A DNA stretch of 64,000 bases from a candidate division FCPU426 bacterium (GTDB lineage: Bacteria > Oederibacteriota > Muellerivitia > Muellerivitales > Muellerivitaceae). Below are positions 1,297 through 28,144 of the stretch, piece by piece. Position 1 is the first letter of the stretch, and each line of letters starts with the position of its first letter. The translations under genes were made by a program, and so were the position numbers. The notes beneath the pieces were generated by a model. It did no database searches, had not been told where the DNA came from, and saw nothing but the letters and a program-made list of their open reading frames with translations. Where the stretch lies: NCBI GenBank assembly GCA_963796105.1, contig CAWCKJ010000003.1:416001-480000 (forward strand), given 5' to 3'.

Positions 1297-1782
1297 CTAA
1301 ACCGTACGATTCACAAAAGAGCGTCTATTCATTTCCGGATCGTGTCCTGGATAAAAAGATTTCTTTACTCCGCCGTCTGCAACTATTTTCAAAGTAAAAT
1401 TTACATAAGAAAGAGCATTGTTTAATAACTTTTCGTTCCGCTGATTAAATTCTTCGAGTTTTTTGGCAGCCTGAGTTAACTCCAATAAGGATTTTTTTAA
1501 TTCCTCAACAACCTCCAAGGGGCATCTCACTATTAATTCCGTTAGTGAAACTTTCTGAAGCTTGTAAATTTGAGCTAGTTTTTTCAACACATCATTCCTT
1601 CGTCCTGAAAGCGGGCCAAGAGCAAACACTTCTTTCTCTTCCAGCCTCACGTTATCAGGAAGAGTTTCAACTTTTCCAGACATCAATAGCTCCCTTTGCA
1701 AACCAGCAAGATGTAATAAACTTCTGTAATGTTCAGTTTCTTTTTTCAAACAATCAATTAAAGTTTGAAATAATTCATTCAT
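1297..1782 (-). CDS. flgN: Flagellar export chaperone FlgN
   Basis: Helical 161-aa protein with the NxxNxxLL motif (FNQRNEKLLNNAL), lying between flgM and flgK. Confidence 0.8.
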   Translation of the reverse strand: MNELFQTLIDCLKKETEHYRSLLHLAGLQRELLMSGKVETLPDNVRLEEKEVFALGPLSGRRNDVLKKLAQIYKLQKVSLTELIVRCPLEVVEELKKSLLELTQAAKKLEEFNQRNEKLLNNALSYVNFTLKIVADGGVKKSFYPGHDPEMNRRSFVNRTV

Positions 1783-1790
1783 TCTTAGGC

Positions 1791-2075
1791 CTAGAGATCG
1801 ATAATTTTCATATCAATGAGACGGGCCGCAAGCTTGTTTGCATCAATTGCAAATTTCCCCGTTTGGACTAATTGTGACAATTGTTCCACCTTCGCGTTTT
1901 GTGCCGCTTCCTGTTTTAATACTTCTCTATGAATCGACTGGAAAACTTCTGCAAACGAACTAAATGAAACAGATGATGACTGAGAATTTGAAGGCTCAGG
2001 TAGGATACTTTTTGATTTATCCGATTTAAAAGTTTGGAGAACAGCAGGAATACTTTGAAAGCCATCGATCCTCAT
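1791..2075 (-). CDS. flgM: Anti-sigma-28 factor FlgM
   Basis: MRI start, SVSFS, and KVEQLSQLVQTGKFAIDANKLAARLI (FlgM C-terminal signature). RBS AAGGAG precedes ATG 2075. Confidence 0.85.
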   Translation of the reverse strand: MRIDGFQSIPAVLQTFKSDKSKSILPEPSNSQSSSVSFSSFAEVFQSIHREVLKQEAAQNAKVEQLSQLVQTGKFAIDANKLAARLIDMKIIDL

Positions 2076-2104
2076 AGGCAACTCCTTATGTTTTCTTAAG
2101 TTAC

Positions 2105-2131
2105 CTAACGGGTTTTAATTCAAAAACTTTA
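2105..2131 (-). promoter_or_regulatory. Sigma-28 (FliA)-type promoter for flgM-flgN-flgK
   Basis: Minus strand TAAA-N15-CCCGTTAG versus consensus TAAA-N15-GCCGATAA, about 30 nt upstream of flgM. Confidence 0.6.
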
Positions 2132-2381
2132 GTAAATTAATTAAATATTGAATTTTTATTATTTTTTAGGTTGAATTTTAAAAGATTTTAAAATCAATAA
2201 ATATAACTCGACAAATATATTGACTCATCAATTTTTGGTTTCTTATTTTTGGGGGAATTGTTCAATAAAATCAAATTTGATATCAGCTAAACGAGGAATT
2301 GTTATTTACGTTATCTAATTAATCAAAAAACTATGTCTTTATAGGGGTTATAACGATAAAACTTATGAATCAAGATATAAA

Positions 2382-2810
2382 TCAATTTGAATGAATGTTT
2401 TTATATCTCTTTGGTTTTGTAACCTTTTGATTAATAAAATTTTCGTCTTTTAAAGTTTTTTGATTTTTAAATTTGTCTATATCATTTTTCAGTTCTTCCG
2501 AAAGGGTTTTTATGCATTTCTCGCACATCTTTCCTTGGGAAATGGGAATTCCACAGCTTTCACAGTACAACCCTGTATCAACCTTTACAAGCCTAAGACG
2601 ATTTTCACGAACATATCTAAATATTTCTTTTATATCAATACCTGTTTCCTGAGAAATTTCTTGTGCGGTTGCACTTGGGCGGGTCGACAAAAAATGGAAA
2701 ATTTTCGTGTAATTGTTTTCTTCTTCTTTAATACAAATAAGACAAATATCCCTTCCGCCAGGAACTTGATTAAATACTTTGCCACATTTTGTACAATTTG
2801 CCCAACTCAT
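2382..2810 (-). CDS. YvyF-like flagellar operon protein (two CxxC zinc-ribbon pairs flanking an HTH)
   Basis: NCTKCGKVF...ICLIC, ATAQEISQETGI...YVRENRL, and CESCGIPISQGKMCEKC. It lies upstream of flgM, as in Firmicutes. Confidence 0.75.
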   Translation of the reverse strand: MSWANCTKCGKVFNQVPGGRDICLICIKEEENNYTKIFHFLSTRPSATAQEISQETGIDIKEIFRYVRENRLRLVKVDTGLYCESCGIPISQGKMCEKCIKTLSEELKNDIDKFKNQKTLKDENFINQKVTKPKRYKNIHSN

Positions 2811-3292
2811 GAAAAGATTTTCTGATGGATTTCAGTTGCTCCCTTTAATCTTTCATAAAGCATATGACTAATACCAATACCACCAACGGAGGCCAACTGG
2901 GTACTTAGTTGTTCATCATGCATAGACTCAAAAAAACCATACGCCTGCGAATTCCCCAATAAACCGGATTTTTGTACGGAATTTCTCATTTCTTTTAAGA
3001 GCATTTGAAGGAATAACGACTCAAAATCTTTTGAAACCTTTTGAATTTCAGAATCGGAATGGAGATGAACCCCAGATACTGGATTTATGTGGTTCAATGG
3101 ACTTAAAGATTGGGTCGAAGGGCTAGAAGGCAAATGAGAAATATAAGTATTGTTAATAATAGCATCCCCAGCCATTTGTGAAGTTATATTTGATTTTGAA
3201 GTTTGATTCGGTTGAAGTGAATTTCGATAATTAAAATCGGTTCTGTTTTGAAGGGGTAACAAGGGTTCTATGGGTTGAGAATATAAATTCAT
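2807..3292 (-). CDS. flgJ: FlgJ rod-binding domain protein (no muramidase domain)
   Basis: KDFESLFLQMLLKEMRNSV...FESMHDEQLSTQLA..GGIGISHMLYERL; follows flgI. Confidence 0.85.
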   Translation of the reverse strand: MNLYSQPIEPLLPLQNRTDFNYRNSLQPNQTSKSNITSQMAGDAIINNTYISHLPSSPSTQSLSPLNHINPVSGVHLHSDSEIQKVSKDFESLFLQMLLKEMRNSVQKSGLLGNSQAYGFFESMHDEQLSTQLASVGGIGISHMLYERLKGATEIHQKIFS

Positions 3293-3310: not shown

Positions 3311-4432
3311 TTATATGATTTCAAGCTCCGCATGTAAGGCGCCAGCTGCTTTAATGGCTTGAAGAATTGAAATCAAATCCCTTGGGGTAGCTCCTACAGC
3401 GTTAATCGCCGAAACCACATCAATTAAAGATGCGCCCTCAGGCAAAACAATTAAATTGCCCTGTTTACCAGTATCCTCAGCGCTTAATGTAGTTGTGTGA
3501 GTTAATTCATCATGACCAAAAACAGCGTCATGGGAAATTTGTGTGGTCTTTTTAACTACTAAATGTAAATTTCCATGAGCAATTGCAACCGCTTCAATCC
3601 GAACATCTTGCCCTAGTACTACTGTTCCTGTACGCTCATTAACAACAACACGGTTTTCAGAAGAATCAGTCAAAACAGGGGTGTCTTCAACCGCTGCTAT
3701 GAAATCAACGACATTATCTTTGTAATTGTTCGGGATTTTCACTTCAATTTGTCCGCCATCAGTTGCCTTTGCAACTTGTTCTCCAAATTGCTGGTTTATA
3801 GCTTGCGTGGCTAAAGAAGCCTGCCCGAAATCAGGATGATTTAATAATATTGCGATTGTGTCATTATCAATAAAAGTGGAAGGAACTTCTCGCTCCACCA
3901 AAGCACCATTTGGAACTCTCCCAGTTGATGTACTATCAACTTGAACCAATGGAAATTCACCAGTGTTGTCAGAAAATCCACCAACCGCAAGCGGACCTTG
4001 AGCAACAGCATAAACCTGTCCATCAGGCCCTTGTAGAGGGGTCATCAAAAGAACACCCCCTTGCAAACTTCTAGCGTCCCCTACTGAAGAAACGATAACA
4101 TCAATTTTATCTCCTGATTTTAACAATGGGGACAATTGTGCAGTCGCCATAATAGCAGCAACATTTTGAGTTCTAATTTGATCCGGACCAATTTTAATTC
4201 CAAATTGATACAACATATTGGTAATGCTTTGTAACGTTGATACGACTCTCTGCGTATCACCAGTTCTTTGTAATCCAACAACCAGACCATATCCAATCAG
4301 CTGATTTTCGCGAACTCCCTTTACCTTCCCAATAGTTTTCAATCTCACCTGAGCGGCATTTAATGGCAAAAATATAAAGCATAATAAAAATACGCTTAAT
4401 ACAAACTTTATCCAATTTAATGATTTGTTCAT
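3311..4432 (-). CDS. flgI: Flagellar P-ring protein FlgI
   Basis: GVRENQLIGYGLVVGL.TGD, SLQGGVLLMTPL, and ILQAIKAAGALHAEL. ATG 4432 has a GAGGA RBS. Confidence 0.95.
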   Translation of the reverse strand: MNKSLNWIKFVLSVFLLCFIFLPLNAAQVRLKTIGKVKGVRENQLIGYGLVVGLQRTGDTQRVVSTLQSITNMLYQFGIKIGPDQIRTQNVAAIMATAQLSPLLKSGDKIDVIVSSVGDARSLQGGVLLMTPLQGPDGQVYAVAQGPLAVGGFSDNTGEFPLVQVDSTSTGRVPNGALVEREVPSTFIDNDTIAILLNHPDFGQASLATQAINQQFGEQVAKATDGGQIEVKIPNNYKDNVVDFIAAVEDTPVLTDSSENRVVVNERTGTVVLGQDVRIEAVAIAHGNLHLVVKKTTQISHDAVFGHDELTHTTTLSAEDTGKQGNLIVLPEGASLIDVVSAINAVGATPRDLISILQAIKAAGALHAELEII

Positions 4433-4452
4433 TCTCAGCTCCTCACTAAAAA

Positions 4453-5067
4453 CTAAAATAAACCAAGCCAACTCATTATCCTTGTCAAAATTCCAGGTTT
4501 CGCAGATTCCGATGCAGGCCCGGTGCCCGTTATTTTTATTTTCGCATTGGCGACCCTAGAAGATAAAACCATGTTATCACGAGTAATATCATCAGGCCGG
4601 ATTTCACCGGTAACTTCGATTGTTTGCTTATCGTCATTTACTTCGACATATCTATTTCCATCAATTAAATAGTTACCATTCGGAAGAACCGAAATAATTT
4701 TTGCAGTCATTTCACCCGTAATAGTTGTGCTTCTACTTGAAGTACCCTGTCCCTGATGAGCCGAACTGGCGCCGACTCCAATTTGATTATTTGTATTTAA
4801 AACATTTGCCCCGTATACGCCTGCACCCATATACCCTGTTCCAGCGCCTATAGCTAAACTGGAAGTTTTTTGGTTTTGACTACTAGCGGCCTGTGTTGCC
4901 TGTGTATCCTCTTGTATCATAACAGTTATTACATCGCCCACTCTTCTTGCTCTTTTTTCGTTATAAATTGAACTTGTTCCTTCTAAAGGGTAAAGAGAAT
5001 CTGCCATCAACTTTTGAATCAAAGGCATTATTAGAATCACTATAAAAAAGAAAATCACTTTACGCAT
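4453..5067 (-). CDS. flgH: Flagellar L-ring protein FlgH
   Basis: RARRVGDVITVMIQE, VLPNGNYLIDG, GEIRPDDI..DNMVLSSRVANAKI. Confidence 0.93.
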   Translation of the reverse strand: MRKVIFFFIVILIMPLIQKLMADSLYPLEGTSSIYNEKRARRVGDVITVMIQEDTQATQAASSQNQKTSSLAIGAGTGYMGAGVYGANVLNTNNQIGVGASSAHQGQGTSSRSTTITGEMTAKIISVLPNGNYLIDGNRYVEVNDDKQTIEVTGEIRPDDITRDNMVLSSRVANAKIKITGTGPASESAKPGILTRIMSWLGLF

Positions 5068-5086
5068 GATCAACCCCTATCCCGAA

Positions 5087-6061
5087 CTACTGTTTTTCAT
5101 CAATTAAAACAGTTTTTTCGTCTAAAACCTTCCCATGTAATACTTTACCAGAATCCGTATTTAATACCTGAATATTATCCCCCGCTTTTCCATCAAAAAG
5201 AGCTTTTGCTTGAATGCTTAATTCTATATTTCCCTTATGGACAATCGCCTGTATCAATTGGGCTCTTTTTATAACAGGTGGATCGTTTAGTTCACTAAGT
5301 CGAATTATTGAACCTATTGGCAATGAGTAAGCTGCTGTTCTTCCCAAAACATTTTCTGCTTTTTGTAAAAAACCCGGAAGAATTTTTGAACTTTGCATTC
5401 TAACCAATCCAACATTAGAAGCTTTAAATTTTTCCCCTTTTTCGACCATTTTTGTTGTTGTCACAACTGATCGGTATATTTCCGAATCGACTCGCAAAGG
5501 CAATACGCGCACAATGCGACCATCCACAGATAATTCAGTCGTTAGTAATACTGAACCCTCATACTTTCCTGAAAAAGAAGGACGAAAACTTGCAGTTACG
5601 TTGCCGGCCGGTAAAACTATTTTCTTGTTCCCGCCCAATACTTTTACTTCAACATTTGCCGGCTGGTCTTGAATTTGCTTCAAAATAAAATTTTTTATTC
5701 CAGGCAATAAACTTTGAGGTGAAAACTCTTGCCCTCGAGTCATTACTTGAACCAATTCAGGGCCCTGAAATGCAAAATCTTCAATATTACAACCTTCTCG
5801 CCGAAGAACAATCCTAACGTATCCCTTTGTTATCTTAATAACATTACCAGCCGGCGCAGTCCTTCCGATTTTAATTTTGCTTAACTTATCAATAACCGTT
5901 TTATTGTTTCCTATTAAGTCCGCGACATCACCTAAAGTAATATCAGGCCCAACTACATTCGTTTTTTCAACGAATTTAATTATTAATTGCCCATTTGCGG
6001 CCAGAAGCAAATTAGTAAAAGAAAAAAACACAAAAAACAAAACGGTTACTATTTTATTCAT
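5087..6061 (-). CDS. flgA: Flagellar P-ring chaperone FlgA
   Basis: Signal peptide, ITLGDVA, a SAF-like region, and C-terminal KALFDGKAGDNIQVLNTDSGKVLHGKV. Confidence 0.88.
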   Translation of the reverse strand: MNKIVTVLFFVFFSFTNLLLAANGQLIIKFVEKTNVVGPDITLGDVADLIGNNKTVIDKLSKIKIGRTAPAGNVIKITKGYVRIVLRREGCNIEDFAFQGPELVQVMTRGQEFSPQSLLPGIKNFILKQIQDQPANVEVKVLGGNKKIVLPAGNVTASFRPSFSGKYEGSVLLTTELSVDGRIVRVLPLRVDSEIYRSVVTTTKMVEKGEKFKASNVGLVRMQSSKILPGFLQKAENVLGRTAAYSLPIGSIIRLSELNDPPVIKRAQLIQAIVHKGNIELSIQAKALFDGKAGDNIQVLNTDSGKVLHGKVLDEKTVLIDEKQ

Positions 6062-6076: not shown

Positions 6077-6874
6077 TCATGGAAATTGCTTCATAGTTGA
6101 AATGTCATACAGCATTGAATCGGAAGTTGAAACAGCCTTGGAATTTAACTCATATGCCCTTTGTGCGACTATCAAATTAACCATTTCACTCACCACATCA
6201 ACATTGGATGCCTCTAATTCACCCTGTTGAACTTGTGGAAAACCTACTGAACCAGGGGTGCCTTGAATCGGCGACCCGGAAGCGGGTGTCTCTTGATAAA
6301 GATTATTTCCTAATGCCTCTAACCCCGCAGGATTAACAAAGCGAGTTAATTCAAGCTGTCCAACTTGTGCCTGTTGGGTTCCACCAGCGGTTTGGATCAT
6401 AATCTGACCCGTTGCGGTTATCTGAATCTGCGAGGTATCAGCTGGAAGTTGAACAGGGGGATCTAAAAAATACCCATTTGCAGTAACCAGATTTCCATTA
6501 GCATCCTGGGTAAATGAACCATCCCTCGTATATGCAGTAGTTCCATTAGGAAGAGTTACCTGAAAAAAACTATTATCTCCCGCAATCAACAGATCAAGAG
6601 GATTATTCGTGTTTTGGATAGGGCCTTCAGTGAAAATCCTCTGCGTGGAAACCGGCTTGACACCTTCTCCTACTTGAAGACCTACAGGTGTGTTCGTGTC
6701 CGGAGACGTCGGATTACCAGCAGGCTTAAGATCCCGATATAAAAGATCCTGGAAATCAACTCTTTGCTTTTTAAAACCCGTTGTACTGACATTGGCAAGG
6801 TTGTTTGAAATTGTATCAATATTTAACTGTTGCGCAGCCATACCAGTTGCTGCTGTGTACAGTGACTGCATCAT
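6077..6874 (-). CDS. flgG: Flagellar distal rod protein FlgG
   Basis: SLYTAATGMAAQQLNIDTISNNLANVSTTGFKK, YTRDGSF, LEASNVDVVSEMVNLIVAQRAYELNSK. Confidence 0.95.
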   Translation of the reverse strand: MMQSLYTAATGMAAQQLNIDTISNNLANVSTTGFKKQRVDFQDLLYRDLKPAGNPTSPDTNTPVGLQVGEGVKPVSTQRIFTEGPIQNTNNPLDLLIAGDNSFFQVTLPNGTTAYTRDGSFTQDANGNLVTANGYFLDPPVQLPADTSQIQITATGQIMIQTAGGTQQAQVGQLELTRFVNPAGLEALGNNLYQETPASGSPIQGTPGSVGFPQVQQGELEASNVDVVSEMVNLIVAQRAYELNSKAVSTSDSMLYDISTMKQFP

Positions 6875-7024: not shown

Positions 7025-7810
7025 TTAAACCCTTAAGGTCCCAATTTCAGTTGCAGCTTCATTTAAAACATGGTCATAAGTAGAAATAACCCTTGAATTC
7101 AACTCATAATTTCTATAAGTATCAATCATGTTTACCATTTCCATCATTGAATTAACGTTTGATTGCTCTAAATAACCTTGCTGAACTTGAATTCCATCCG
7201 GTGAACTATCTATTTTGTTTTGTGTTTTAACCTCGAATAAAGAATGTCCAACTTTATTGAGTTGATTTTCATTTTGAACTTTAACAATTAACAATTGATC
7301 CAAGGCTTTCCCGTCAACCATCAAATTCCCTTGTTGATCAGAAGTAACCTCAGTTCCATCAATATAAATTTCGCCATTATGTCCCAAGACCGGTAAACCA
7401 TCCTTTGTTACCAGTCGCCCATTTGAATCTAAGCTAAAGTTACCATCTCGAGTTAACCAAGTTTTTCCATCTGGTCCTAAAACCGAGAAAAAACCGGAAC
7501 CATTGAGTGCAAAATCAAGGGGACTTTTAGTCTCAAGGTGTGACCCTTGTGAATAATCAGTGGTTATCGTTTGTGGTATTACTCCTCCTCCCATAACTCC
7601 AATATTTGGCCTCAACTCAGCAGTACCATCCATCACATTAATTCGTTGATCATGAATTCTGGCAATTAAATAAGTTGGAAAAGCTACATCCACAGACCGG
7701 TTTTGCTTAAATCCAATAGTGCTGACGTTAGCCAAGTTGTTAGCAATAACGTCTTGTCGCGCAAGTGTAGAGTTCAAGCCAGATGCAGCAATGTATAGTC
7801 CGCTCGGCAC
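7025..7810 (-). CDS. flgF: Flagellar rod protein FlgF (FlgF/FlgG family)
   Basis: GLYIAASGL...IANNLANVSTIGFK, TRDGNF, QGYLEQSNVN; immediately upstream of flgG. Confidence 0.88.
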   Translation of the reverse strand: MPSGLYIAASGLNSTLARQDVIANNLANVSTIGFKQNRSVDVAFPTYLIARIHDQRINVMDGTAELRPNIGVMGGGVIPQTITTDYSQGSHLETKSPLDFALNGSGFFSVLGPDGKTWLTRDGNFSLDSNGRLVTKDGLPVLGHNGEIYIDGTEVTSDQQGNLMVDGKALDQLLIVKVQNENQLNKVGHSLFEVKTQNKIDSSPDGIQVQQGYLEQSNVNSMMEMVNMIDTYRNYELNSRVISTYDHVLNEAATEIGTLRV

Positions 7811-7844: not shown

Positions 7845-9419
7845 TCAACGGCTATGCACTGGCACAGCAGTTCCAGCTGCTTGAATAACGGTACTATAGG
7901 GTAATGCAACAGCACTTATTTCTTTGGATCTTGAACTTTCTGTTCCATCGTTTCCAACTGTCGTTAAAGAAAAGAAATATCTTTGTCCGACTTTTAACTT
8001 CCGAACCAGATAGGTTGGAACATTACTAATGGGCTGAGCATTTACTTTTTCAAACCGCCCACCTGAAACTTCTGAAATGTAAATATTATACCCTTTTGCA
8101 CTGATCTTTCCCGGATCAGCCAACCCCGCTATTCCGGCTTGCTTAGCAATATCAATGACACCCTCATTTTGAAGCTCGCTTTGAACCACAACCGGTGCGC
8201 CAGGAGCAGATGTCGTGCCAGCTATTATCTCTCTTGAATATTGACTTTCAACTGGAGGTACAGTATTGGTTATTGAACTTACCACAAAATAATAATGAGT
8301 ATTTTTCTCTAATCCACGTAGCGAATAATAATTTGCCTTTACCGGTTTTTGGTTGATTTTTACATAACCTCCACCAGAAGTTTTAGTGAAATAAACGTTA
8401 TATCCAGCCAAGGAAAGGGACGGTGAATTTACCCACCTAAGGGTAATAATATCGCCATCCACTGATGCATTTAAACCTTCCGGAATAAAACTTTTCACTT
8501 TCCCCAAGAAAGACTCGCCAAACCGCCAATTGGCAGAGATCCGATGCGTTGCTCCTAGAAATTCAGCATGACCCATATAAGCATAATCAATTCCCCAAGA
8601 TTTTGAACGATAACTGATCCCAGCAGTAAACTGTCCAGGAAGTGTCATAAAATCACTATACCCGGTTCTGATTCCAAGTTGGTCCTCAAAAAACCAGCCT
8701 TCAATACCTGCGTGCAACAGTGTATGATCCCCTACTGTTTGGTCACTAATGCTTTCAAATTCCCAAGCTGTAACTAAATCGTCAGTAAACTCATAACTAA
8801 ATCCACCCCTGACACTCAATGCAACCGGATCAACGTTTCCACCCTGCCAACGAATAGTTGTGTCCACATCTTGAGCGCATAAACCAATATTTATTTGTTT
8901 TCCATATCGAGGATTCAAAATTGGCATATGATATAGAAAACCCAGATCAAGGCCCCAACCAGTAGCTTGAAGTCCTGGTTGATTTGACGAATCCGCACCA
9001 TAAAGTTTTAAATTCAGCCCGCAAGAAATAGACTTATCAATCGCTAATGGCGCTGCAAAAGACCCATAATAAATCCGTTCATTCAAGGAGCCGTCAGTAA
9101 AAAAATGTTGTTGAGTGGCAATTGCCCACGCCATTTGATCGCCAAAAGGCTGCACATACACGCCTTCAAAATCATCCTCTTTTCCGTTTAAAAGAATTGC
9201 GGCCATTCCTGATATTTCAGGGCGTAAAACTTGAACAAGACCAGCAGGATTGAAAAAAACCGCATCACCAGAATCCGCTACTGTTGTAAATGCCCCACCC
9301 ATTCCCAAAGGTCGAGCACCAATACCCGTAACGCCGCCTTTAGCAAAAGTCTGTGCTTTCACAGAAGTTATCGGCAGCAAAAGCAATAATAGGATGGCAG
9401 CTAAATTCCTAATAACCAT
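7845..9419 (-). CDS. PorV/UPF0164-like outer-membrane beta-barrel protein with two C-terminal fibronectin type III-like domains
   Basis: Signal peptide (SVKA-Q). GIGARPLGMGGAFTTVADSGDAVFFNPAGL is the PorV/FadL-like N-terminal motif. Amphipathic strands end at THRISANWRFG. FN3 motifs: ITLRW..GYNVY..LRGLEKNTHYYFVVSS and GYNIY..LKVGQRYFFSLTTVGNDGTES. Confidence 0.75.
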   Translation of the reverse strand: MVIRNLAAILLLLLLPITSVKAQTFAKGGVTGIGARPLGMGGAFTTVADSGDAVFFNPAGLVQVLRPEISGMAAILLNGKEDDFEGVYVQPFGDQMAWAIATQQHFFTDGSLNERIYYGSFAAPLAIDKSISCGLNLKLYGADSSNQPGLQATGWGLDLGFLYHMPILNPRYGKQINIGLCAQDVDTTIRWQGGNVDPVALSVRGGFSYEFTDDLVTAWEFESISDQTVGDHTLLHAGIEGWFFEDQLGIRTGYSDFMTLPGQFTAGISYRSKSWGIDYAYMGHAEFLGATHRISANWRFGESFLGKVKSFIPEGLNASVDGDIITLRWVNSPSLSLAGYNVYFTKTSGGGYVKINQKPVKANYYSLRGLEKNTHYYFVVSSITNTVPPVESQYSREIIAGTTSAPGAPVVVQSELQNEGVIDIAKQAGIAGLADPGKISAKGYNIYISEVSGGRFEKVNAQPISNVPTYLVRKLKVGQRYFFSLTTVGNDGTESSRSKEISAVALPYSTVIQAAGTAVPVHSR

Positions 9420-11589
9420 TCGGGCCTACCTTCTCACCATTTATATGGATGTCCGAAAGCTGCAAAAACTGTAACTGATTTATTTTCCCAACAGCAAAAT
9501 TAGCAGCCACTTGGGTTGGAGTAATTATAACCAATTCATTTTTTCCATAATATACACGAGTTGATATCTCTTTTAAACCTGTTCCTACTGAATTCACACC
9601 CGTTTTTACCACTTCTCCCGCTTCTTGGAATATATAAGGGACATATGTCAAATGGGAACGATAATTTATAATAATAATAGCGTCCCCATTAAGGTTTTTA
9701 TCAAAATGAGCATTTAGCACTTGATCTGGGTTCAAATGGTTAAATCCCATTACCGGAACATTACCAGCTTCCGGATAACCCGTATTATTGGCAGAATCAG
9801 TCGGGTTAACATTTTTCTGCTGAGCATTAGCGGTATTGGATACTAATTCCATGGATTCAAGCATTTTCTTGAGATTTTCCTGAGCCAAAGTTGTAAGTTT
9901 TTTCCGTTCTTGCTCAAGTAATGATTGTTGTTGTCGGCGAATGTTGATAAGTTTAGCCGAGTCTTTAATTGATCCCTCATTTACAGAGGATAATATTTCA
10001 ATTGTTTGAACGGGGGTTGAACCAATATGTTCTAATTGATCTTGGACTTGAAAAGCCCAAGTATAAACACCCGGCGGTAAGGGTTGATACTCATCATCTT
10101 CACCACTCCAAAGCAATTTAGTTGTAGGTGATCCAACCCCTCTTAAACCCCTCACCAAATGGTTGTTTTTATCATAAATTAATACGCTCCAACGATTAAC
10201 TGTAACATCCTCAGTTGTATCTAAATGAAATTCCGCTTTTTCACCTTGAGCAGGAAAAAATGAGGCCGGTTGAACATAAGCTCCTACTTTAGGTGGCGGC
10301 AACTCCTCTCCTCCGCCAAAGCGATAAGCCATTCCAATATAAAAATTCTCAAAATTTATACCACCCGTGTCATATGAACCAATAGCTGATCCCGCTGTTA
10401 CACTCGCAGAAGGAGAAACTGGCAAAAGATAAGCCGCATCTGTTTGAAAATCTCCGTTGAAAGCTCTTAAGCTTAATCCTAATGAAAAAATTCCGGGACG
10501 ACTTAAAGGCGTTGAATAACCCCCACGTACGGCCATAACGTCCCTAAAAAACCAGAATTCTGTTCCGAAACGAAGATATTTATTATCGGAATCCGAAAAT
10601 CTCGGATCAGAAATTTGGTCAAAATCAATTGCAGTAATATTTCGTATTTTAAATAAGTAAGCATTTTTATACGCAAATCCTAATGTGATTTCTGGCGGAA
10701 TGTTAGCTTGATATCCTGGTCCCACATTAAAAGTAATGGGGGTAGCACCAGGAGGAATGTACAAGATATTAGAACCCGCAGTTAGGCCATTTGGATATTG
10801 CGCCAAACCCACTAAATCGTTCAAAGCTAAACCAATTCTAAATTCCTCTGAATATTTAGTTATTGGAATTCTATAAAGGATACCAACATCCACTCCAAAT
10901 CCGGTAACTTGAGTCGCATTATTAAGTGCCTTTGCCAAACTAGGGTCATTTCCAAAATATCGTATGTAATAAGGATCGTTTGTAATTCTTTTTATATTAA
11001 CTCCAACCGAAAAATTCCTAACAGCAGAAAAACGAGCCGCATAAGAAAGAAGAATTTCACTTTGTTGAAAACTCGGATTTTGAAGATAACTAAATTGCGA
11101 CGATGTCGGTTGATCTAAAAAATTATTTCCAATATATAAATTGCGTTGATCGTGAAAGGGCCGGAAAAGAGATATCCCTAATGTATTTTCTTTTGCAAGT
11201 GGAGCAATAAATTGGAAGGAAGCGTACCATGGAAATCCAAATCCAGGCTTTCCATTAACCTTGTCCATGAAATAATCGGGAGCACTTGAGATTGATAATT
11301 CGTAAGATGAAAGCTGAGCCAAACCAGCAACATTCCAATAAGCTGCTGATGCATCATCCGAAATTGCGACAAATGCCCCACCCATTCCAATAGCCCTGGG
11401 ACCAATTCCTGAGGTTTCCTTCCATCCGAAAATAGGGTTGATCGTTTGAGAATAAGCAACATTTGCAAATAAAATAATAAATAAAAAACCAATTAATAAA
11501 TTAAGATTTCGTTTATGCGCATTCGAGTACCGAATAATTCTTTTATTTAATTTTTGCACCTTTATCATCACCCTTCTTGTTTTACCCAA
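9409..11589 (-). CDS. PorV/UPF0164-like outer-membrane beta-barrel protein with FlgD-Ig-like domain, coiled coil and unknown C-terminal domain
   Basis: GIGPRAIGMGGAFVAISDDASAAYWNVAGL; barrel ends at FYIGMAYRFGG. Then WSVLIYDKNNHLVRGL...WSGEDDEYQPLPPGVYTW (FlgD-Ig-like) and a QQQSLLEQERKK coil. The true start may be a few codons downstream. Confidence 0.72.
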   Translation of the reverse strand: MGKTRRVMIKVQKLNKRIIRYSNAHKRNLNLLIGFLFIILFANVAYSQTINPIFGWKETSGIGPRAIGMGGAFVAISDDASAAYWNVAGLAQLSSYELSISSAPDYFMDKVNGKPGFGFPWYASFQFIAPLAKENTLGISLFRPFHDQRNLYIGNNFLDQPTSSQFSYLQNPSFQQSEILLSYAARFSAVRNFSVGVNIKRITNDPYYIRYFGNDPSLAKALNNATQVTGFGVDVGILYRIPITKYSEEFRIGLALNDLVGLAQYPNGLTAGSNILYIPPGATPITFNVGPGYQANIPPEITLGFAYKNAYLFKIRNITAIDFDQISDPRFSDSDNKYLRFGTEFWFFRDVMAVRGGYSTPLSRPGIFSLGLSLRAFNGDFQTDAAYLLPVSPSASVTAGSAIGSYDTGGINFENFYIGMAYRFGGGEELPPPKVGAYVQPASFFPAQGEKAEFHLDTTEDVTVNRWSVLIYDKNNHLVRGLRGVGSPTTKLLWSGEDDEYQPLPPGVYTWAFQVQDQLEHIGSTPVQTIEILSSVNEGSIKDSAKLINIRRQQQSLLEQERKKLTTLAQENLKKMLESMELVSNTANAQQKNVNPTDSANNTGYPEAGNVPVMGFNHLNPDQVLNAHFDKNLNGDAIIIINYRSHLTYVPYIFQEAGEVVKTGVNSVGTGLKEISTRVYYGKNELVIITPTQVAANFAVGKINQLQFLQLSDIHINGEKVGPNGY

Positions 11590-11620: not shown

Positions 11621-11920
11621 TTATTTCACTTTTTCGCCAGTATCTGTTTTGTAAATCGCCACCAAAATTTCCGCAACAATTTGATATAGGTTAGATGGTA
11701 TATCTTGGTTTATGTTTAGTTTATCGAGCATATCGACAAGTAACCTGTCTTCTAAAACAGGAACTCCATTTTTTTTTGCGATATTTATTAATCTTTCCGC
11801 AATCATCCCTTTCCCTTTTGCAATAATGCGTGGTGCAGGCATTGTTTTCTTATCATACCTAAGTGCGATAGCAGTTTTACGAAGAATTCTCTTTCGCGGC
11901 AAAGATTCCGGAGGGCTCAA
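11621..11920 (-). CDS. FlhB C-terminal-domain-like protein (EscU/YscU/HrcU family, YlqH/FlhX-like)
   Basis: AIALRYD..APRIIAKGKGMIAERLINIAKKNGVPV.ED..L...IPSNLYQIVAEIL. Confidence 0.88.
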   Translation of the reverse strand: MSPPESLPRKRILRKTAIALRYDKKTMPAPRIIAKGKGMIAERLINIAKKNGVPVLEDRLLVDMLDKLNINQDIPSNLYQIVAEILVAIYKTDTGEKVK

Positions 11921-13240: not shown

Positions 13241-14932
13241 TCAATTTCCTCTAAAAGGCCCGACTTTTATTTCCCCATCTGATTCAGTAAGTGTGCAATA
13301 TTTCAACTCCTCCGTTATTTGACGAGAAGATCTATTGATCGTAATTTTAACACCCGTATGAATTATTCCCATGCAAGTCACTTTTGCTCTTTTTCTTCTA
13401 TCTTCAGCCGCATCCTGATCACGTTTTTCCAATTCTTGTTTTTTTTCTGTTAGAGTTTTAGTATCAGCAATTAATTTAAATTGAGCCCTCGTCAATTTTG
13501 TAAAAAGTTCCTTTTTATCCGGGGGCAAATTACCGCCCATTTTATTTTGTAAATCTTTTAAAAACTGGACACCTTTTCGGGTCTTATCAAGATTTTCTAT
13601 GGAGTTTTTTAATTCAGTCTCGATTTTATGCAATTCATCTCTCAATCCAATTGCTTCACCAACAATAACTTCTGTTGGGGTTGCGAAATTGGATCCCATT
13701 GATGCTGCGTTAACCTCGTATCCAGCAATTACCTGTCCACCGACAATAACGCCTTTTCTTCCAGCCACGGTTATTTTCCCGCCTACGGTTATTTTGCTGT
13801 GCATAATAGCTTGAGAGCAATTGAGGTTACCAGCAGCCTCAACTGTTGCATTACGAATGTATTTAATAATCGCATCACCCTGACAAGTTATTTTCGCCTT
13901 GTCATTTCCACTTACACCACCAGCAATTGTCAATTTTCCACCGCTTTTAATTTCCGCACCTTCTACTACACCATTAACAATTACATCTTCTCCCGCATAA
14001 AGTTTAAATCCATCTTTCACATCACCACGAACAATAACAGTTCCTATAAAATCGATGTTACCAGTAGACAAATTGATGTCTCCCGGAATTTCAAACAACG
14101 CCATTACTGATATTTTATTGTCTTTAACTATTACCTGCCCATCTGCATCAGCAATAAACTCATCTTTGTTTTCAGGGTTTAGAACAACACCCTTAGCGGC
14201 AATTATTTCTATATCTTTGCCATCTTTAGCCTCTATTGGCTTCCCAGTTACAGTCATTCCGTGAGTACCTTTAGTAGGTGGGATTTTACGAGCCAATAAA
14301 GTACCTTTAGTTATATTATCGATCTTATGAACTGCACGATAATCCACTCTTCCGTCTTCAGTCTCCTCAAGAACAGGAACTTGGGTTTCCTCTTCCACCT
14401 TCTTTTTGTAAAGATATTCAACTCGAGCATCTTCCCCATTGTTCACGGGTGTACCAAAAGCAATTTCCATTTCTACTGGTTCAATAAAATTTTTCAATTC
14501 AGCTAATTTTATTAATTTTTCAGATAATTCACTCACACGAGTTTCATCAAGGCCATAAATAACATTTCTGTTCTTCAAAGTTTCACGGACTTCTTCTATA
14601 GTTGAAAAATGTCCATTTTCACCTTGTGGCGGAACTATTGTTACCTTAGCAAGCATTTCATCATCACTGATCTCAACAAAAATCTGTTCCTGACCGTCGA
14701 TTAACGCGAATTTATTTTGGGCGATTTTTTGAGCGCGACCCGCCGCTTGAGAAATAATTTGATTTAATAAATTTGGGTTGTTAATTTCCACTTTGAATTT
14801 TGCCAATTCTTTTTTGACATCCTCTAGAACAACCCTATTTCCTTTTCCAGTGGGAGGAAACACCGTCAAATAAATACCATCGTTTTCTTTGGTAACAGTT
14901 ATGTAGCCATTTATATCTTTAGTTCCGACCAT
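13241..14932 (-). CDS. fapA: FapA family (DUF342) flagellar assembly protein
   Basis: GRVDYR, GTLLARKIPPTKGTHGMTVTG, GDINLSTGNIDFIGTVIVRGDV, GVIVGG. Confidence 0.88.
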   Translation of the reverse strand: MVGTKDINGYITVTKENDGIYLTVFPPTGKGNRVVLEDVKKELAKFKVEINNPNLLNQIISQAAGRAQKIAQNKFALIDGQEQIFVEISDDEMLAKVTIVPPQGENGHFSTIEEVRETLKNRNVIYGLDETRVSELSEKLIKLAELKNFIEPVEMEIAFGTPVNNGEDARVEYLYKKKVEEETQVPVLEETEDGRVDYRAVHKIDNITKGTLLARKIPPTKGTHGMTVTGKPIEAKDGKDIEIIAAKGVVLNPENKDEFIADADGQVIVKDNKISVMALFEIPGDINLSTGNIDFIGTVIVRGDVKDGFKLYAGEDVIVNGVVEGAEIKSGGKLTIAGGVSGNDKAKITCQGDAIIKYIRNATVEAAGNLNCSQAIMHSKITVGGKITVAGRKGVIVGGQVIAGYEVNAASMGSNFATPTEVIVGEAIGLRDELHKIETELKNSIENLDKTRKGVQFLKDLQNKMGGNLPPDKKELFTKLTRAQFKLIADTKTLTEKKQELEKRDQDAAEDRRKRAKVTCMGIIHTGVKITINRSSRQITEELKYCTLTESDGEIKVGPFRGN

Positions 14933-15725
14933 GTTTCCTCCTCTCACCCACTAATTCCTGTAACCGATAAACAGCCATATTATGAATCTGGCAAATACGA
15001 GATTCACTAACTTTCAAAATCTTTCCAATTTGCTTAAAAGTTAAATTTTCAACATAATATAAATGTAAAACATTTTGTTCAGACTCTTTAAGCAGAAGTA
15101 AAGCTTTCGCAACTCGATCAATTTTCTCTTGTTTTTCAACTTTATCAAGAGGATTTTCAACCCCATTATCCGACAATAAATCGGCTAAAGTATCACCTTC
15201 TAGACCATTTTCAACATACGCTACGTCCAACGAAAGAAGGTTAAGCATATTGATTTCTGCAATCCAATCATAAAGATCTCCAAGACAAATTCCTAAATAT
15301 TTAGCAATTTCTTCTTCACGGGGTAATCTTCCAAATTTACCTTGTAATTTTTTTTCAGCTTCCTTTATTGCCCTTCCTTGCTTTCGTAAATTCCTTCTTG
15401 CAAAATCAAGGTTCCGTAGTTCATCTATCATTTGGCCCCGAATACGATATCGAGCATATGATTCAAAAGCAATTTCCGGATTTAACACTTTTTCTTTAGG
15501 CGGAATAAAACGATCAATAGCCTGCAAAAGACCAATTACACCAGCAGAAACTAAATCTTCTTTCTTTTCTAAGTAAGCATTCAATGGTAACCTTGATAAT
15601 AATCTTCTGCTTTCGCCATCAACTAAAAAATAATACTCCAATGCTATTTTGTCACGAACAGCTAAATCCTTCTTGTTTTTTAAAAATCTTAGCCACAGTG
15701 AATGTGATTTCCCTCCAGTGTTCAT
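14919..15725 (-). CDS. fliA: RNA polymerase sigma-28 factor FliA/WhiG
   Basis: DLVSAGVIGLLQAIDRF, FESYARYRIRGQMIDELRNLD, LTFKQIGKILKVSESRICQIH. Confidence 0.93.
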   Translation of the reverse strand: MNTGGKSHSLWLRFLKNKKDLAVRDKIALEYYFLVDGESRRLLSRLPLNAYLEKKEDLVSAGVIGLLQAIDRFIPPKEKVLNPEIAFESYARYRIRGQMIDELRNLDFARRNLRKQGRAIKEAEKKLQGKFGRLPREEEIAKYLGICLGDLYDWIAEINMLNLLSLDVAYVENGLEGDTLADLLSDNGVENPLDKVEKQEKIDRVAKALLLLKESEQNVLHLYYVENLTFKQIGKILKVSESRICQIHNMAVYRLQELVGERRKHGRN

Positions 15726-16397: not shown

Positions 16398-17597
16398 TTA
16401 ACTTAATAGTGACCTTACAATCCTTTCTGATAATGTATTTACTTCAGCAATCTCAAGATCATCAGGAACGTTTTGTCCTGTTGCGTAATAAGACAATGGA
16501 ATTTGAAAATTATTCATCAAATTCAAAAAAGCTCCATAATATCGCGTTTCGTCCAATTTCGTAAAAATCATTCTATTGATTGGGACTGCAAGACCAAAAC
16601 ATTCTATGATTCTTATCATGTCATAGTATTTAGTAGTTGAAGACAGAACAAGGTGAATTTCATCGGGCTGACTTTTTGTTATAAATAACTTTAATTCATC
16701 TAATTGTTCGTTATTGGAAGGACTACGCCCAGCAGTATCAAGCAAAACCAAATCCACACCTTTATGCCGTTCAATTATTCCCTCAATCTCGTCGGAAGAA
16801 TTCGCTACCTCAACAGGTATTCCCATAATCCTCCCATATGTTTTTAATTGTTCAGTTGCAGCAATTCTGTATGTATCTGAAGTAATTAAAGTAACTTTTT
16901 TCCTATTTACCAAACTAAATTTCGCCGCAAGTTTAGCTAAGGTGGTTGTTTTCCCAACGCCGGTGGGGCCAACAAAAGCAATAACTTTTTGAAACCCATT
17001 GAAAGTTAAAGGACTTGCCACCTTTATTAAATTTGATACAAATCGTTGCAACCAAAATTGAACTTCCTCATTTTTTTCAACATTAATTTTTTCATTTATC
17101 ATCCCACGAACAATTCTTTGAATTAGGAACTCCTCAATTTCTTGTTTTACCATTTTTTTCTTAAACCTTGCCAACCCTTCGGCGATTATTAGATTTGTAT
17201 CATTCGGGGTATATTCTTTCATTACAGTTGGCACGGTTGAAGTTTTCATTTCATTAAGTTCCCGCTGTAATGCTTTCACTTTAGTTCTATTCGGATCTAA
17301 ATTTTCTATTACTAGCGTAGAATCTCTACTCAGCATGTTATGTCTTGAAATTTGATGATCTTTTTTTTCAATAGGTATTTGAAGTGATAGAGAGGTATTT
17401 TTTCTCTTAGCAAAATCATCTAATAAATTCAAATCTAACCCGGCAGTTATTTCCGCCATATGTTTACCAAAAAGACCTAAAACACCCCCTTTGCGAAAAG
17501 TTTTAGTATATAAGATCACAGCTTCTGGGCCCAAGTCCTTTTTCACTTTCACTAAAGCTTCTTGAATAGTTGGCGCTTCATACCTTTTTATTCTCAT
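16398..17597 (-). CDS. flhF: SRP-family GTPase FlhF
   Basis: MRIKRYEAPTIQEALVKVKKDLGPEAVIL, GPTGVGKTTTLAKLAA, DTYRIAA, DTAGRS, TKLDE, GQNVPDDL. Confidence 0.95.
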   Translation of the reverse strand: MRIKRYEAPTIQEALVKVKKDLGPEAVILYTKTFRKGGVLGLFGKHMAEITAGLDLNLLDDFAKRKNTSLSLQIPIEKKDHQISRHNMLSRDSTLVIENLDPNRTKVKALQRELNEMKTSTVPTVMKEYTPNDTNLIIAEGLARFKKKMVKQEIEEFLIQRIVRGMINEKINVEKNEEVQFWLQRFVSNLIKVASPLTFNGFQKVIAFVGPTGVGKTTTLAKLAAKFSLVNRKKVTLITSDTYRIAATEQLKTYGRIMGIPVEVANSSDEIEGIIERHKGVDLVLLDTAGRSPSNNEQLDELKLFITKSQPDEIHLVLSSTTKYYDMIRIIECFGLAVPINRMIFTKLDETRYYGAFLNLMNNFQIPLSYYATGQNVPDDLEIAEVNTLSERIVRSLLS

Positions 17598-19675
17598 GCA
17601 CCAACCTCAATAGAACCAACAGATTGTATTTCCGTTCTCGGCAAAAGTTCGCTAAATGACAAAACTGTTAAATGAGGGATAAAACGCTCAATGATTTTTT
17701 TAAAATAGGGACGAACATTCGGTGAACACAAAACCAAAGGCTGCTGATTGTTTCCCGCCATTTTCTCAATCCCGTTTGATAGGCTCCTGAAAATCTGTTG
17801 TAAAAGCCTGGGATCTAATGCTGTAAACGAACCACTTTCAGCAGCTTGTATTGATTCTAATATTGTTTTTTCCAATTTTGGATCTAGAGTTAATGCATAA
17901 ATTTTCCCATCGTTTGACTGGTGAGATTTTGTAATTGAACGCGACAATGCTCTTCTTGCATATTCTGTCAATATTTGAGTATCTTTTGTTTCGCGTATAT
18001 GATCCGCAACAGCCTCTAATATTGTTTCCAAATCGCGTATTGGGATATGTTCCTTTAAAAGGTTTTGAAGGATTTTTTGCAAATCACCAACTAATAAATG
18101 CGATGGAACTGTTTCATCAATAACAGCAGGTGTATCTTTTTTAAAAGTTTCTAATAGTTTTGAAACACTTTGCCGAGTTAAAAACTCATGTGCCTGATTT
18201 CTTATAATTTCAGTTAAATGTGTTGAAATGACAGTCGAAGCATCTACAACTGAATATCCCGCCTGCTCAGCTATTAGCTTTTCATCATCCGTTATCCAAT
18301 ACGCAACCAAATTAAAAGTCGGCTCTTTTGTTTCAATCCCTTGAATTTTTACCAAGTTAGGACCAGTCGCCATTGCCAATAGATGTCCTGGCATAATCTT
18401 CCAACGTGATACTTCCACTCCTTTAATTTTAATAATATATTCAGATGGTTGTAATTGCATATTGTCGCGAATTCGAATTGGAGGAACAACTAAACCCAAG
18501 TCACTTGCCATTTGACGTCTAATACTCGTAATTCTTTCAAGCAAATCACCACCTTGAGCTTCATCAACCAAAGGTATCAAACTATAACCAATTTCGATTT
18601 CTAAATGGTCAACCTGTAATAACGATGAAACATTTTCAGGCTCCTTTTTCTTTTCAGGAATAAGTTGGTTTGCTTTTTCCACTTCTTCTTTTTCCCTTTT
18701 AACAACAGATCGAAGGTAGAATGCCAAAAAACCAGATAACAACGAAATGAAAATAAAAGCAACATGAGGCATTCTGGGAAAGAGTCCGAAAAAAAACATA
18801 ACGCCAGAGGTAATCCAAAGAGCCCTTGGTTGTGCAATAATTTGTTTGATAAGATCTGTTCCAAGATCGCTTTCCGAAGCTGCTCGAGTAACAACAATAC
18901 CTGTTGCGGTTGATAGCATAAGCGCAGGAATTTGAGTTGCTAAACCACCACCTATAGTTAATAGAGTATAACGTGTTAAAACTTCTGCCCAGCCTAACCC
19001 CCCTACATAAAACCCCATCGCAAATCCACCTAATATATTAATGATAGCGATAATAATAGCCGCAATCGCATCCCCACGAACAAACTTGCTGGCTCCGTCC
19101 ATTGCACCATAAAAATCAGCTTCTCTTTCAACCTCCTTGCGTCTTTTCCGAGCTTGATCATCGGTGATTAGACCTGAATTCAAATCCGCATCAATCGCCA
19201 TTTGTTTTCCTGGCATTGCATCTAAAGTAAACCGAGCTGCAACCTCCGCAACCCGTTGAGCACCATTGGTAATAACTATAAATTGAATGATAATTAGAAT
19301 CAGGAAAACAACAAACCCAACTATTGGGCTGCCTCCAATAACAAATTGCCCTATCGATTCAATAACTTTCCCAGCTGCATCTGAACCCTCGTTACCATGT
19401 AAAAGAATTAATCGTGTCGCAGAAACTTCTAATGCAAGGCGGAAAAGCGTTGTTATTAAAAGTAAAGTAGGAAAAATTGAAAATTGCAAAGGTTCAAGCG
19501 TATACATAGTTACCAAAACAACAACAAGAGCCAAAGTAATGTTAAATGAAATAAGAATATCCAAAACGATACTTGGCAATGGAATAAACAACATGAGAAT
19601 AACCATGACTAAGGCAAACGCAATAATAAGACCGCTTTTCTCTTGAATTGTTTTTATAGTGATCGCTTCAGGCAT
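17594..19675 (-). CDS. flhA: Flagellar export gate FlhA
   Basis: RVAEVAARFTLDAMPGKQMAIDADL, FYGAMDGASKFVRGDA, PPIRIRDN. Confidence 0.97.
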   Translation of the reverse strand: MPEAITIKTIQEKSGLIIAFALVMVILMLFIPLPSIVLDILISFNITLALVVVLVTMYTLEPLQFSIFPTLLLITTLFRLALEVSATRLILLHGNEGSDAAGKVIESIGQFVIGGSPIVGFVVFLILIIIQFIVITNGAQRVAEVAARFTLDAMPGKQMAIDADLNSGLITDDQARKRRKEVEREADFYGAMDGASKFVRGDAIAAIIIAIINILGGFAMGFYVGGLGWAEVLTRYTLLTIGGGLATQIPALMLSTATGIVVTRAASESDLGTDLIKQIIAQPRALWITSGVMFFFGLFPRMPHVAFIFISLLSGFLAFYLRSVVKREKEEVEKANQLIPEKKKEPENVSSLLQVDHLEIEIGYSLIPLVDEAQGGDLLERITSIRRQMASDLGLVVPPIRIRDNMQLQPSEYIIKIKGVEVSRWKIMPGHLLAMATGPNLVKIQGIETKEPTFNLVAYWITDDEKLIAEQAGYSVVDASTVISTHLTEIIRNQAHEFLTRQSVSKLLETFKKDTPAVIDETVPSHLLVGDLQKILQNLLKEHIPIRDLETILEAVADHIRETKDTQILTEYARRALSRSITKSHQSNDGKIYALTLDPKLEKTILESIQAAESGSFTALDPRLLQQIFRSLSNGIEKMAGNNQQPLVLCSPNVRPYFKKIIERFIPHLTVLSFSELLPRTEIQSVGSIEVGA

Positions 19676-19783
19676 TTTCCCCTCAAAAATCCGAGTTAAA
19701 AGAACTTCTGATTTAACCCTTTTAAAATTTTATAATTCATTTCATATTTTCCACAATTACCTTGAATTATCATCTCCCAATTC

Positions 19784-20860: not shown

Positions 20861-20884
20861 TTAAACCTCTAATTTTCCAGAAAA

Positions 20885-21670: not shown

Positions 21671-21677
21671 CTATTTC

Positions 21678-21947
21678 TCACTTAAAGTAGTTTGGAAGAT
21701 TTATCCATAAATTTGAAGTGTAGTTTAAAAGAATAAGCATCATCCACTTTCCGAAAATTAATATAGCAAAAAAAATTGCAACAATTTTAGGGATAAAAGT
21801 TAAAGTCATTTCCTGAATTTGTGTAACCGCCTGAAATATCGAAACTGCCACACCCACGGCCAATCCGAGCCCTAGTATAGGAGCTGAAATTAACAAGGTT
21901 ATCCATAAAGCTCTATTTGCTAAATCCGCAATAAAATCAACACTCAT
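21678..21947 (-). CDS. fliQ: Flagellar export protein FliQ
   Basis: VSIFQAVTQIQEMTLTFIPKI; start taken at MSVDF. Confidence 0.95.
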   Translation of the reverse strand: MSVDFIADLANRALWITLLISAPILGLGLAVGVAVSIFQAVTQIQEMTLTFIPKIVAIFFAILIFGKWMMLILLNYTSNLWINLPNYFK

Positions 21948-21964
21948 TACTTTCCTCGCATTAA

Positions 21965-23409: not shown

Positions 23410-23435
23410 TGAAATTAGGCCACGCCTATTTGAAA

Positions 23436-24374: not shown

Positions 24375-24389
24375 AAACTATCCAAATGA

Positions 24390-25415: not shown

Positions 25416-25452
25416 TTATTGCTTCCTCCCTCCAAAACTCAATTGTAAAAGC

Positions 25453-25929: not shown

Positions 25930-25947
25930 CTTTATCCCTCCTCTTTA

Positions 25948-26703: not shown

Positions 26704-26736
26704 TTCCCACTCCCATTAACGGTTTACAACATCAAA

Positions 26737-27555: not shown

Positions 27556-27646
27556 GAAATCACCTCCAAAAATTTCCTCATTGTTTATTTCAAATCATAA
27601 AACAACATTGTTGGAAATAAAAACAGAACTAAAATTTCCTCCAAGC

Positions 27647-28138: not shown

Positions 28139-28144
28139 AAAACC

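Follow-up and report, generated by a model that had tools for sequence, protein, structure and literature searches.

Two adjacent genes, porA and porB (together porAB), were located in a 64,000-nucleotide stretch of a candidate division FCPU426 genome (assembly GCA_963796105.1, contig CAWCKJ010000003.1, positions 416,001 to 480,000; hereafter the window), where they head the rod and ring genes of a flagellar cluster. The pair marks, and is likely a part of, a flagellin-less flagellar machine that occurs throughout the phylum. On balance, PorA and PorB probably form an outer-membrane anchor or collar of a motor whose predicted appendage is a long rotating hook with an enlarged FlgK as its cap, and no filament. 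Although flagellin counts as a core flagellar gene, a clade that spans this phylum keeps the stator, the hook, and late regulation without it.

The barrel gene pair and its linkage to rod and ring genes

Both genes lie on the minus strand and overlap by 11 bp, as they do in most family relatives. The gap from porB to flgF (7810) is 34 bp and that from the FlhB-like gene (11621) to porA is 31 bp. The motif GxGxRxxGMGGAFxxxxDxxxAxxxNxAGL was found at window positions 11409-11320 in porA and 9326-9237 in porB. These features agree with an earlier note on this DNA, which had also assigned a signal peptide to each gene; the signal peptides were seen in alignments, where they were judged by eye and not by a predictor. 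The porA open reading frame (ORF; 9409-11589) encodes 726 amino acids from the first TTG, although a start near 11568-11559 is likelier; the database protein has 716 amino acids, and the numbering used here (719 amino acids) counts from the ATG at 11568. The porB gene (7845-9419) encodes 524 amino acids. Scans for sigma-70 promoters and terminators remained at chance level.

The NCBIfam family NF033709 (PorV/PorQ, cut-off 90 bits) matched porA at E 7e-25 with 88.2 bits, or 90.6 bits when summed in frame, and porB at E 1e-15 with 57.8 bits, which is under the cut-off. The strict PorV score was not reached, as the PorV equivalog NF033710 (cut-off 250) gave 26.5 bits for porA and no match for porB. 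No Pfam or NCBIfam match to the FlgO, FlgP, FlgT, or FapH families was obtained for either protein at E 0.01. The pair is neither a strict PorV shuttle nor a member of an H-ring family. The porA and porB profiles matched each other with a probability of 100, which indicates paralogous barrels.

The porA structure model (AlphaFold2, 21-row alignment, mean predicted local distance difference test score, pLDDT, of 74.6) contained 14 long strands within residues 89-417 that form one barrel. The barrel is followed by an Ig domain (422-528), a helix of 35 residues (537-571), a disordered linker, and a putative alpha/beta domain (about 605-719); the earlier note had read a FlgD-Ig-like domain, a coiled coil, and an unknown domain from the sequence. 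Foldseek ranked 8gl6_F and 6h3i_F, two type IX secretion system (T9SS) entries, first and FadL next. In a wide structural search, the best match was 6h3i_F, from a T9SS translocon entry (Z 29.1, root-mean-square deviation 3.1, 290 residues aligned), and FadL/TodX followed at Z 26; chain F of 6h3i is presumably PorV. The Ig domain, which Pfam FlgD_ig matched weakly by sequence (E 0.0096), was similar to PorU residues 1054-1158 (Z 12.9). By its predicted fold, porA is a PorV/FadL-type barrel, and porB is one by sequence likeness. The PorV-like fold proposed earlier for both was therefore recovered in the model of porA, and in porB by profile likeness only. Of two FN3 domains claimed for porB, Pfam found one (E 2e-9), and the second was visible in the alignment only. 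A complex prediction of porA (42-530) with porB (23-510) scored 0.00, with no folded controls alongside.

The C-terminal part of porA matched only 30 clusters among 1.84 billion, and its domain had no usable match in PDB sequences or the Atlas; this domain is a clean, narrow marker of the system. The tails of both proteins are probably periplasmic, since barrel topology places them there and a paralogue at C2:7380, with a barrel and three Ig domains, ends in an OmpA-like part (a label given by eye).

Linkage to flgF, flgG, flgA, flgH, and flgI, which had been expected of orthologues, was found when their loci were surveyed. Among 30 loci of relatives, 23 had DNA past porB, and flgF was the next gene in 22 of these, the exception being G029. 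A scan of GTDB with one genome per species yielded 42 loci, of which 41 were orthologous (L091, a distant paralogue, was left out); flgF came next in 38 of the 41, and the contig ended in the other three. The two locus sets (23 and 41) overlap, and kin within them are not independent. The order porA-porB-flgF-G-A-H-I-J was constant while the upstream genes differed between families, and porAB held its position across families despite 22-38% identity. The position of porAB is not due to chance, because flgF follows in 22/23 and 38/41 loci. Records with orthologues carried the depositor labels Ca. Goldbacteria/Goldiibacteriota, Firestonebacteria, Coatesbacteria, Spirochaetia, or unclassified, and these labels are unreliable; the lineage is probably the Goldbacteria/FCPU426 group. 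The 150-bp gap between flgF and flgG (window 6875-7024) has a similar length in relatives. In one assembly, porB+flgF (L075:2736-5000) and flgA+flgH (6014-7972) are single ORFs, which represent either fusion or sequence error.

Missing filament genes and enlarged hook proteins

The distribution of the pair was determined in 99 genomes of the phylum, all of them metagenome assemblies, in which absence means that a gene was not found with the profiles used. The window genome (4.98 Mb) is 96.8% complete. porA was present in 64 genomes, as a single copy in each apart from split contigs, FlgI in 69, and both in 61. Three porA genomes without FlgI and two FlgI genomes with neither porA nor flagellin are all fragmented; in G026, for instance, the assembly breaks after flgG. 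Among the porA-free genomes, 26 of 35 had neither FlgI nor FliD. The flagellin/FlgL family PF00669 matched in 13 genomes and FliD in 12, all of which were among the 13, and the control genomes matched. The thirteenth genome, G047, is without FliD, and its match is a lone FlgL-like fragment; the 6.7-kb contig that carries it has no flagellar genes nearby. Neither FliD nor flagellin was found in 59 of the 64 porA genomes, one of which has a stray FlgL fragment. The five porA genomes with FliC and FliD (G037, G072, G096, G097, and G098) each harbored a second FlgI and an ordinary flagellar cluster (two loci read). That five genomes hold both cluster types, the ordinary one complete, suggests that the two do different jobs. 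Seven genomes had an ordinary flagellum only; these lacked porA and contained flgL, fliW, fliC, fliD, and a flgK of about 470 amino acids (three loci read). In a FastTree phylogeny of FlgI and FlgG, a single branch with a support of 100 separated 28 porAB-linked clusters from 5 ordinary ones. A MotA/ExbB family match occurred in 99/99 genomes and was not discriminating.

No match over the cut-off to PF00669 or PF00700 was found in the window genome, and the controls matched. Profiles of FliC (7 rows), FlgL (5), FliS (3, two doubtful), and FliW (4), derived from sequences of this phylum, likewise found nothing among its ORFs of at least 80 amino acids, and a FliD profile matched only the inserts of two long FlgK proteins (E 6e-14 and 7e-12). 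The missing filament genes are independently supported by one Goldbacteria genome (98.9% complete) in Table S1 of the preprint PMC13277936, where the cells for FlgK, FlgE, FlgM, FliA, and MotAB are filled and those for FliC, FliD, FliS, and FlgL are empty; this row concerns flagellar genes and not porAB, and its columns were counted by hand. The available text of the same source mentions a high loss rate for FCPU426, and that of PMC7031533 lists flagellar genes for Goldbacteria and leaves flagellin uncommented. A literature search that left subscription journals mostly uncovered returned no report of PorV-like barrels in flagellar operons or of missing flagellin in this phylum.

Proteins beyond the rod are longer in the porAB clusters: FlgK has 697-865 amino acids vs. 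about 470 in ordinary clusters, FliK 669-1079 vs. 383-476 in four ordinary clusters (L182, a wrong ORF, was left out), and FlgE 489-678 vs. 407-413. When modelled from a 44-row alignment (pLDDT 84.6), the FlgK of a relative proved to be a genuine FlgK (Z 27.1 to 9go6); its inserts came nearest to FliD D2-D3, at a middling Z of 8.4. According to the available part of PMC6972891, the FliK of Salmonella (405 amino acids) measures a rod of 35 nm plus a hook of 55 nm. Linear scaling from this protein would give the porAB clusters a hook of very roughly 110-200 nm.

A phylum-specific sigma-28 matrix found 5 sites in the window genome vs. 7 in the reversed control, and a scan with a generic sigma-28 pattern was uninformative. 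The late class seems to consist of flgM-flgN-flgK and what follows, because the sigma-28-type site before flgM is conserved in 15 loci and it alone beats all controls. Eight genes scanned after flgK/flgE belong to different families, with no conserved cargo among them. As a proxy for copy number, the C-ending codons of Phe, Tyr, Ile, and Asn were scored against cluster neighbours. Ordinary fliC scored 0.6-1.8 log units above its neighbours in 5/5 clusters, and flgE was raised in 14/15 porAB clusters (median 0.75). The long flgK exceeded its neighbours in only 8/19 clusters (median -0.10), and FlgK as a filament was rejected on this negative test.

Some genomes carry a second long flgK. One (748 amino acids) lies in the window genome, on an island at G000:C7:14118-20358, with a second flgD, three glycosyltransferase-like genes, a gene bearing a T9SS-type C-terminal domain (CTD), and a Ser/Thr-rich ORF of 143 amino acids; the same island is present in G001, where the main cluster is absent. 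After flgE, at G000:C3:404953-408108 (L097:6954-10109), lies a gene for a Pro/Gln/Asn-rich repeat protein of 1051 amino acids that few relatives have; it is without a signal peptide and ends in a hydrophobic D-I-V-type tail like those of FliK and of the 106-amino-acid ORF, and it is a candidate export substrate.

The window and its T9SS-like background

The features of the window are listed in Table 1. The export gate, MS and C rings, rod, L and P rings, hook, stator, and the FlgM/sigma-28 late switch are all kept, and the genes downstream of flgK are fliK (1019 amino acids), flgD, a TIGR02530 gene, and flgE, not flgL or fliC. Both motA and motB are intact in the window, as they are in 8 further porAB clusters, and FliL and FliG/M/N are conserved too. 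The G+C content of window positions 1-44000 is 32-41%, and that of the flagellar cluster itself 33-41%, vs. about 50% for the genome; besides this cluster, the zone holds housekeeping genes as far as secD. Positions 11921-12293 are non-coding with inverted-repeat ends; relatives have a gene of 200-240 amino acids there, before the FlhB-like gene. The ends presumably resemble those of IS200/IS605 elements, and a 78-bp part of the region recurs on contig C13.

Table 1. Features of the flagellar cluster, in window coordinates
Feature	Position	Strand	Remarks
porA	9409..11568	-	signal peptide, barrel, Ig, long helix, phylum-specific C-terminal domain; sequence search and structure model
porA predicted PorV/FadL-type 14-strand barrel	about 10309-11445	-	
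porA Ig/FlgD-like domain	9985-10305	-	
porA long helix	9856-9960	-	
porA phylum-specific C-terminal domain	9412-9756	-	
porB	7845..9419	-	signal peptide, PorV-like barrel, two FN3-type domains; profile likeness to porA
porB putative PorV-like barrel	about 8517-9353	-	sequence likeness
porB FN3-type domains	8214-8492 and 7899-8207	-	
flgF, distal rod	7025..7810	-	after porB in nearly all orthologous loci
flgG, distal rod	6077..6874	-	sequence likeness and position
flgA, P-ring chaperone, long form	5087..6061	-	313-353 aa (amino acids) in porAB clusters vs. about 209-237 aa in ordinary clusters
flgH, L ring	4453..5073	-	this copy without lipid-anchor cysteine
flgI, P ring	3311..4471	-	
flgJ, rod-binding domain only	2807..3292	-	
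yvyF-like flagellar region protein	2382..2810	-	TIGR03826, below cut-off
sigma-28-type promoter-like site before flgM-flgN-flgK	2104..2133	-	fixed spacing in 15 relatives' loci
flgM, anti-sigma-28	1791..2081	-	
flgN, chaperone	1297..1782	-	
enlarged flgK, 5' part	1..1287	-	865 aa, continues to C3:414690; three FliD-like inserted repeats
FlhB-like (TIGR00789-like) gene	11621..11920	-	upstream of porA; kept in nearer families only
fliA/WhiG-type sigma-28	14919..15725	-	
motB and motA, stator	25948..27555	-	intact
flhF, flhA, flhB, fliR/Q/P/O, fliN-Y, fliM, fliL, fliJ/I/H/G/F/E, flgC, flgB	16398..34425	-	flhA, flhF, and fliP/Q/R named from sequence and position, no profile scan

The genome also contained components of a T9SS-like system. 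An ORF of 2017 amino acids at G000:C3:212289-218342 (L162:790-6843) encodes an SprA/Sov-like translocon (TIGR04189, 207.6 bits, cut-off 200), and SprA-like matches were present in 92/99 genomes of this phylum outside Bacteroidota, whatever their flagellar status. The window genome has 18-19 PorV-family matches, and many barrel paralogues occur in every genome. A CTD profile, for which ten ORFs lying upstream of other barrels were chosen by eye, identified 109 ORFs with a terminal CTD-like domain in the window genome; ten other barrels lie directly behind CTD cargo genes. Searches of the window genome for GldM, GldN, and peptidase C25 (PorU-type) gave no match, the control genomes also falling under the cut-off and GldK and GldL lying outside the search. 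The flagellar motor as a required power source of this system was rejected, as SprA occurs in flagella-free genomes. A T9SS-like system with an SprA/Sov-like translocon but without a known motor, outside Bacteroidota, is noteworthy in itself. Three giant secreted proteins (1647, 2142, and 2313 amino acids) with CTD-like ends are encoded at window 44761-63394, the first of them a GH116 glycosidase; they have no link to porAB beyond being three of the 109 CTD ORFs.

Role of PorA and PorB and comparison with known systems

A structural role at the outer-membrane bushing is the most economical explanation, because the genes head those of the distal rod, P ring, and L ring and are restricted to this cluster type. 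The many T9SS-like, cargo-linked barrels of the phylum may be the pool from which PorA and PorB were recruited, and the Ig, FN3, and C-terminal domains of the pair would hang into the periplasm and contact the L and P rings or the cell wall. The FliK ruler would build the long hook, after which the export gate would switch; sigma-28 would then activate flgM-flgN-flgK, and the tip would be closed by FlgK, which bears FliD-like outer domains. The short appendage may rotate and serve not swimming but surface contact, whether to probe, to attach, or to stir at particles. Such contact would load the outer-membrane bushing, and the barrels would bear this load. Of the two roles that the earlier note had offered, a basal-body accessory in the outer membrane remains the better, although not as an accessory of an ordinary swimming flagellum like FlgT/FlgO/FlgP, since flagellin, FlgL, and FliD are missing. 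T9SS shuttles merely co-regulated with motility were weakened, as SprA occurs regardless of flagella and porA occurs only with one cluster type.

Several observations weigh against the anchor or collar role. Since the porAB cluster is inherited as a single clade, the co-distribution of the pair with this cluster type counts as one evolutionary event. Non-flagellar paralogues in the same genome also have barrel+Ig and barrel+FN3 arrangements, and only the C-terminal part of porA is specific to the flagellum. The linkage is not obligatory, because the flagellar cluster of G029 (a single contig, 96% complete) is ~265 kb away from the pair. The presence of CheA does not match that of the cluster, as it was found in 52/64 porA genomes, but not in G029, and in 14/26 cluster-free genomes. 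The codon signal of flgE exceeds that of the ordinary clusters only modestly, with medians of about 0.7 (8 further porAB clusters) and 0.4 (5 ordinary ones). A missing FlgH lipobox was rejected as the reason for the barrels, since FlgH of the phylum's ordinary clusters is equally without one; the FlgH cysteine count in the cluster comparison does not test a lipobox. Finally, the window genome lacks a 215-amino-acid gene found in relatives, and flhG is absent both from its site (16148-16398; in the family relatives read, between flhF and a gene of 135 amino acids) and elsewhere in the genome. The only other genome of the genus lacks the main cluster and keeps the second flgK, and the window's own cluster may be under relaxed selection.

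A broader proposal, possible but doubtful, is a phylum-wide hybrid machine in which T9SS barrels couple a filament-less motor, with its long hook and FliD-like FlgK cap, either to the outer membrane or to adhesins that are secreted; cells would thereby move on surfaces or handle substrates in a way distinct from both swimming and the gliding of Bacteroidota. It is unlikely that PorA and PorB are T9SS-type receptors that would hold SprA-secreted CTD cargo at the motor, which would move or present this substitute for a filament. PorV is the closest fold, the genome has the SprA/Sov match over the cut-off, the PorV-family matches, and the CTD ORFs, and its ten barrels right behind cargo genes recall Bacteroidota, where a type B cargo gene sits beside its PorP/SprF barrel (available part of PMC10202324). 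However, neither the loci of relatives nor the GTDB scan showed a CTD cargo gene conserved beside porAB, the CTD profile found no CTD on any flagellar protein of the window genome, and the genes after flgK/flgE vary between lineages. Since SprA is also present in flagella-free genomes, the T9SS-like system can do without this motor.

A secretion nozzle derived from the flagellum is quite improbable. In this arrangement, like the one proposed for Buchnera, the hook and FlgK would serve as a conduit that the barrels seal or position, and rotation would be incidental. The missing filament genes are consistent with it, a long ruler and hook suit a needle-like conduit, 12/64 porA genomes have no CheA, and a second flgK and flgD lie elsewhere beside small Ser/Thr-rich and glycosyltransferase-like genes. 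On the other hand, MotA, MotB, FliL, and FliG/M/N are conserved, whereas Buchnera lost motA and motB (available part of PMC8109811), and the sigma-28 scan gave no late substrates beyond flgM-flgN-flgK.

The two remaining explanations fit worst. A hidden long filament, made either from FlgK polymers or from a flagellin that has diverged beyond recognition, with the barrels as general reinforcement of a swimming motor, is very unlikely: true flagellins show a codon signal that the long flgK lacks, the phylum's own flagellin profiles find nothing, and FliD, FliS, and FliW are missing from the window genome, although FlgK keeps both D0 helices, has flagellin-IN-type outer domains in 10/44 members, ranks with the most variable proteins of the cluster (36-47% identity), and has a second long copy in some genomes, and FlgM/sigma-28 is retained. 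That an unrelated T9SS-like barrel pair hitch-hikes in the operon is scarcely credible despite the unlinked pair of G029 and the plentiful barrel paralogues, as the position is kept across diverged families while upstream genes change, and porA occurs in 0/26 cluster-free and 0/7 ordinary-only genomes, nearly all of which keep SprA and other barrels.

If the anchor or collar role is true, PorA and PorB would be, within the literature searched, the first described integral barrels as motor parts, and the organelle the first powered, hook-only one in free-living bacteria. Research on flagellar evolution would gain a living model of a stage before or after the filament, and two secretion systems thought to be separate would become joined. 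Gene lists score these organisms as swimmers, which is a warning. According to the available part of PMC13277936, only about 2-5% of flagellated genomes lack flagellin.

The porAB proteins share with T9SS PorV the predicted 14-strand FadL-type barrel and the N-terminal motif, in a genome with an SprA/Sov-like translocon and CTD-like cargo. They differ from it in their extra C-terminal domains, in a score far below the PorV equivalog cut-off, and in being tied to a flagellar operon with no neighbouring cargo gene. Unlike PorP/SprF-type barrels, their neighbours are the FlhB-like gene and flgF rather than CTD cargo, with variable upstream genes in distant families. FlgO, FlgP, and FlgT are lipoproteins or periplasmic proteins. 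FapH is a lipoprotein, and the Vibrio H ring (FlgO/FlgP/FlgT) and Helicobacter FapH ring resemble porAB in a likely role where the rod crosses the outer membrane and in being encoded with motor genes (available parts of PMC11756786 and 10.1101/358820). In contrast, porAB are predicted integral barrels, have no sequence match to these rings, and go with a motor without filament genes. The hook-basal-body of Buchnera likewise keeps the export gate, rod, rings, and flgD/E/K and has lost fliC, but in a reduced endosymbiont without motA/motB (PMC8109811, in its available part). The porAB clusters keep the stator, switch, and FlgM/sigma-28 and have enlarged FliK, FlgE, and FlgK proteins; genome sizes throughout the phylum are 1.3-5 Mb. 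Compared with the canonical flagellum, including the phylum's second clusters, all parts from the C ring to FlgK are shared, whereas the porAB clusters are without FlgL, FliC, and FliD, have a FliK about twice as long and a FlgK with FliD-like inserts, and begin their rod and ring genes with porAB.

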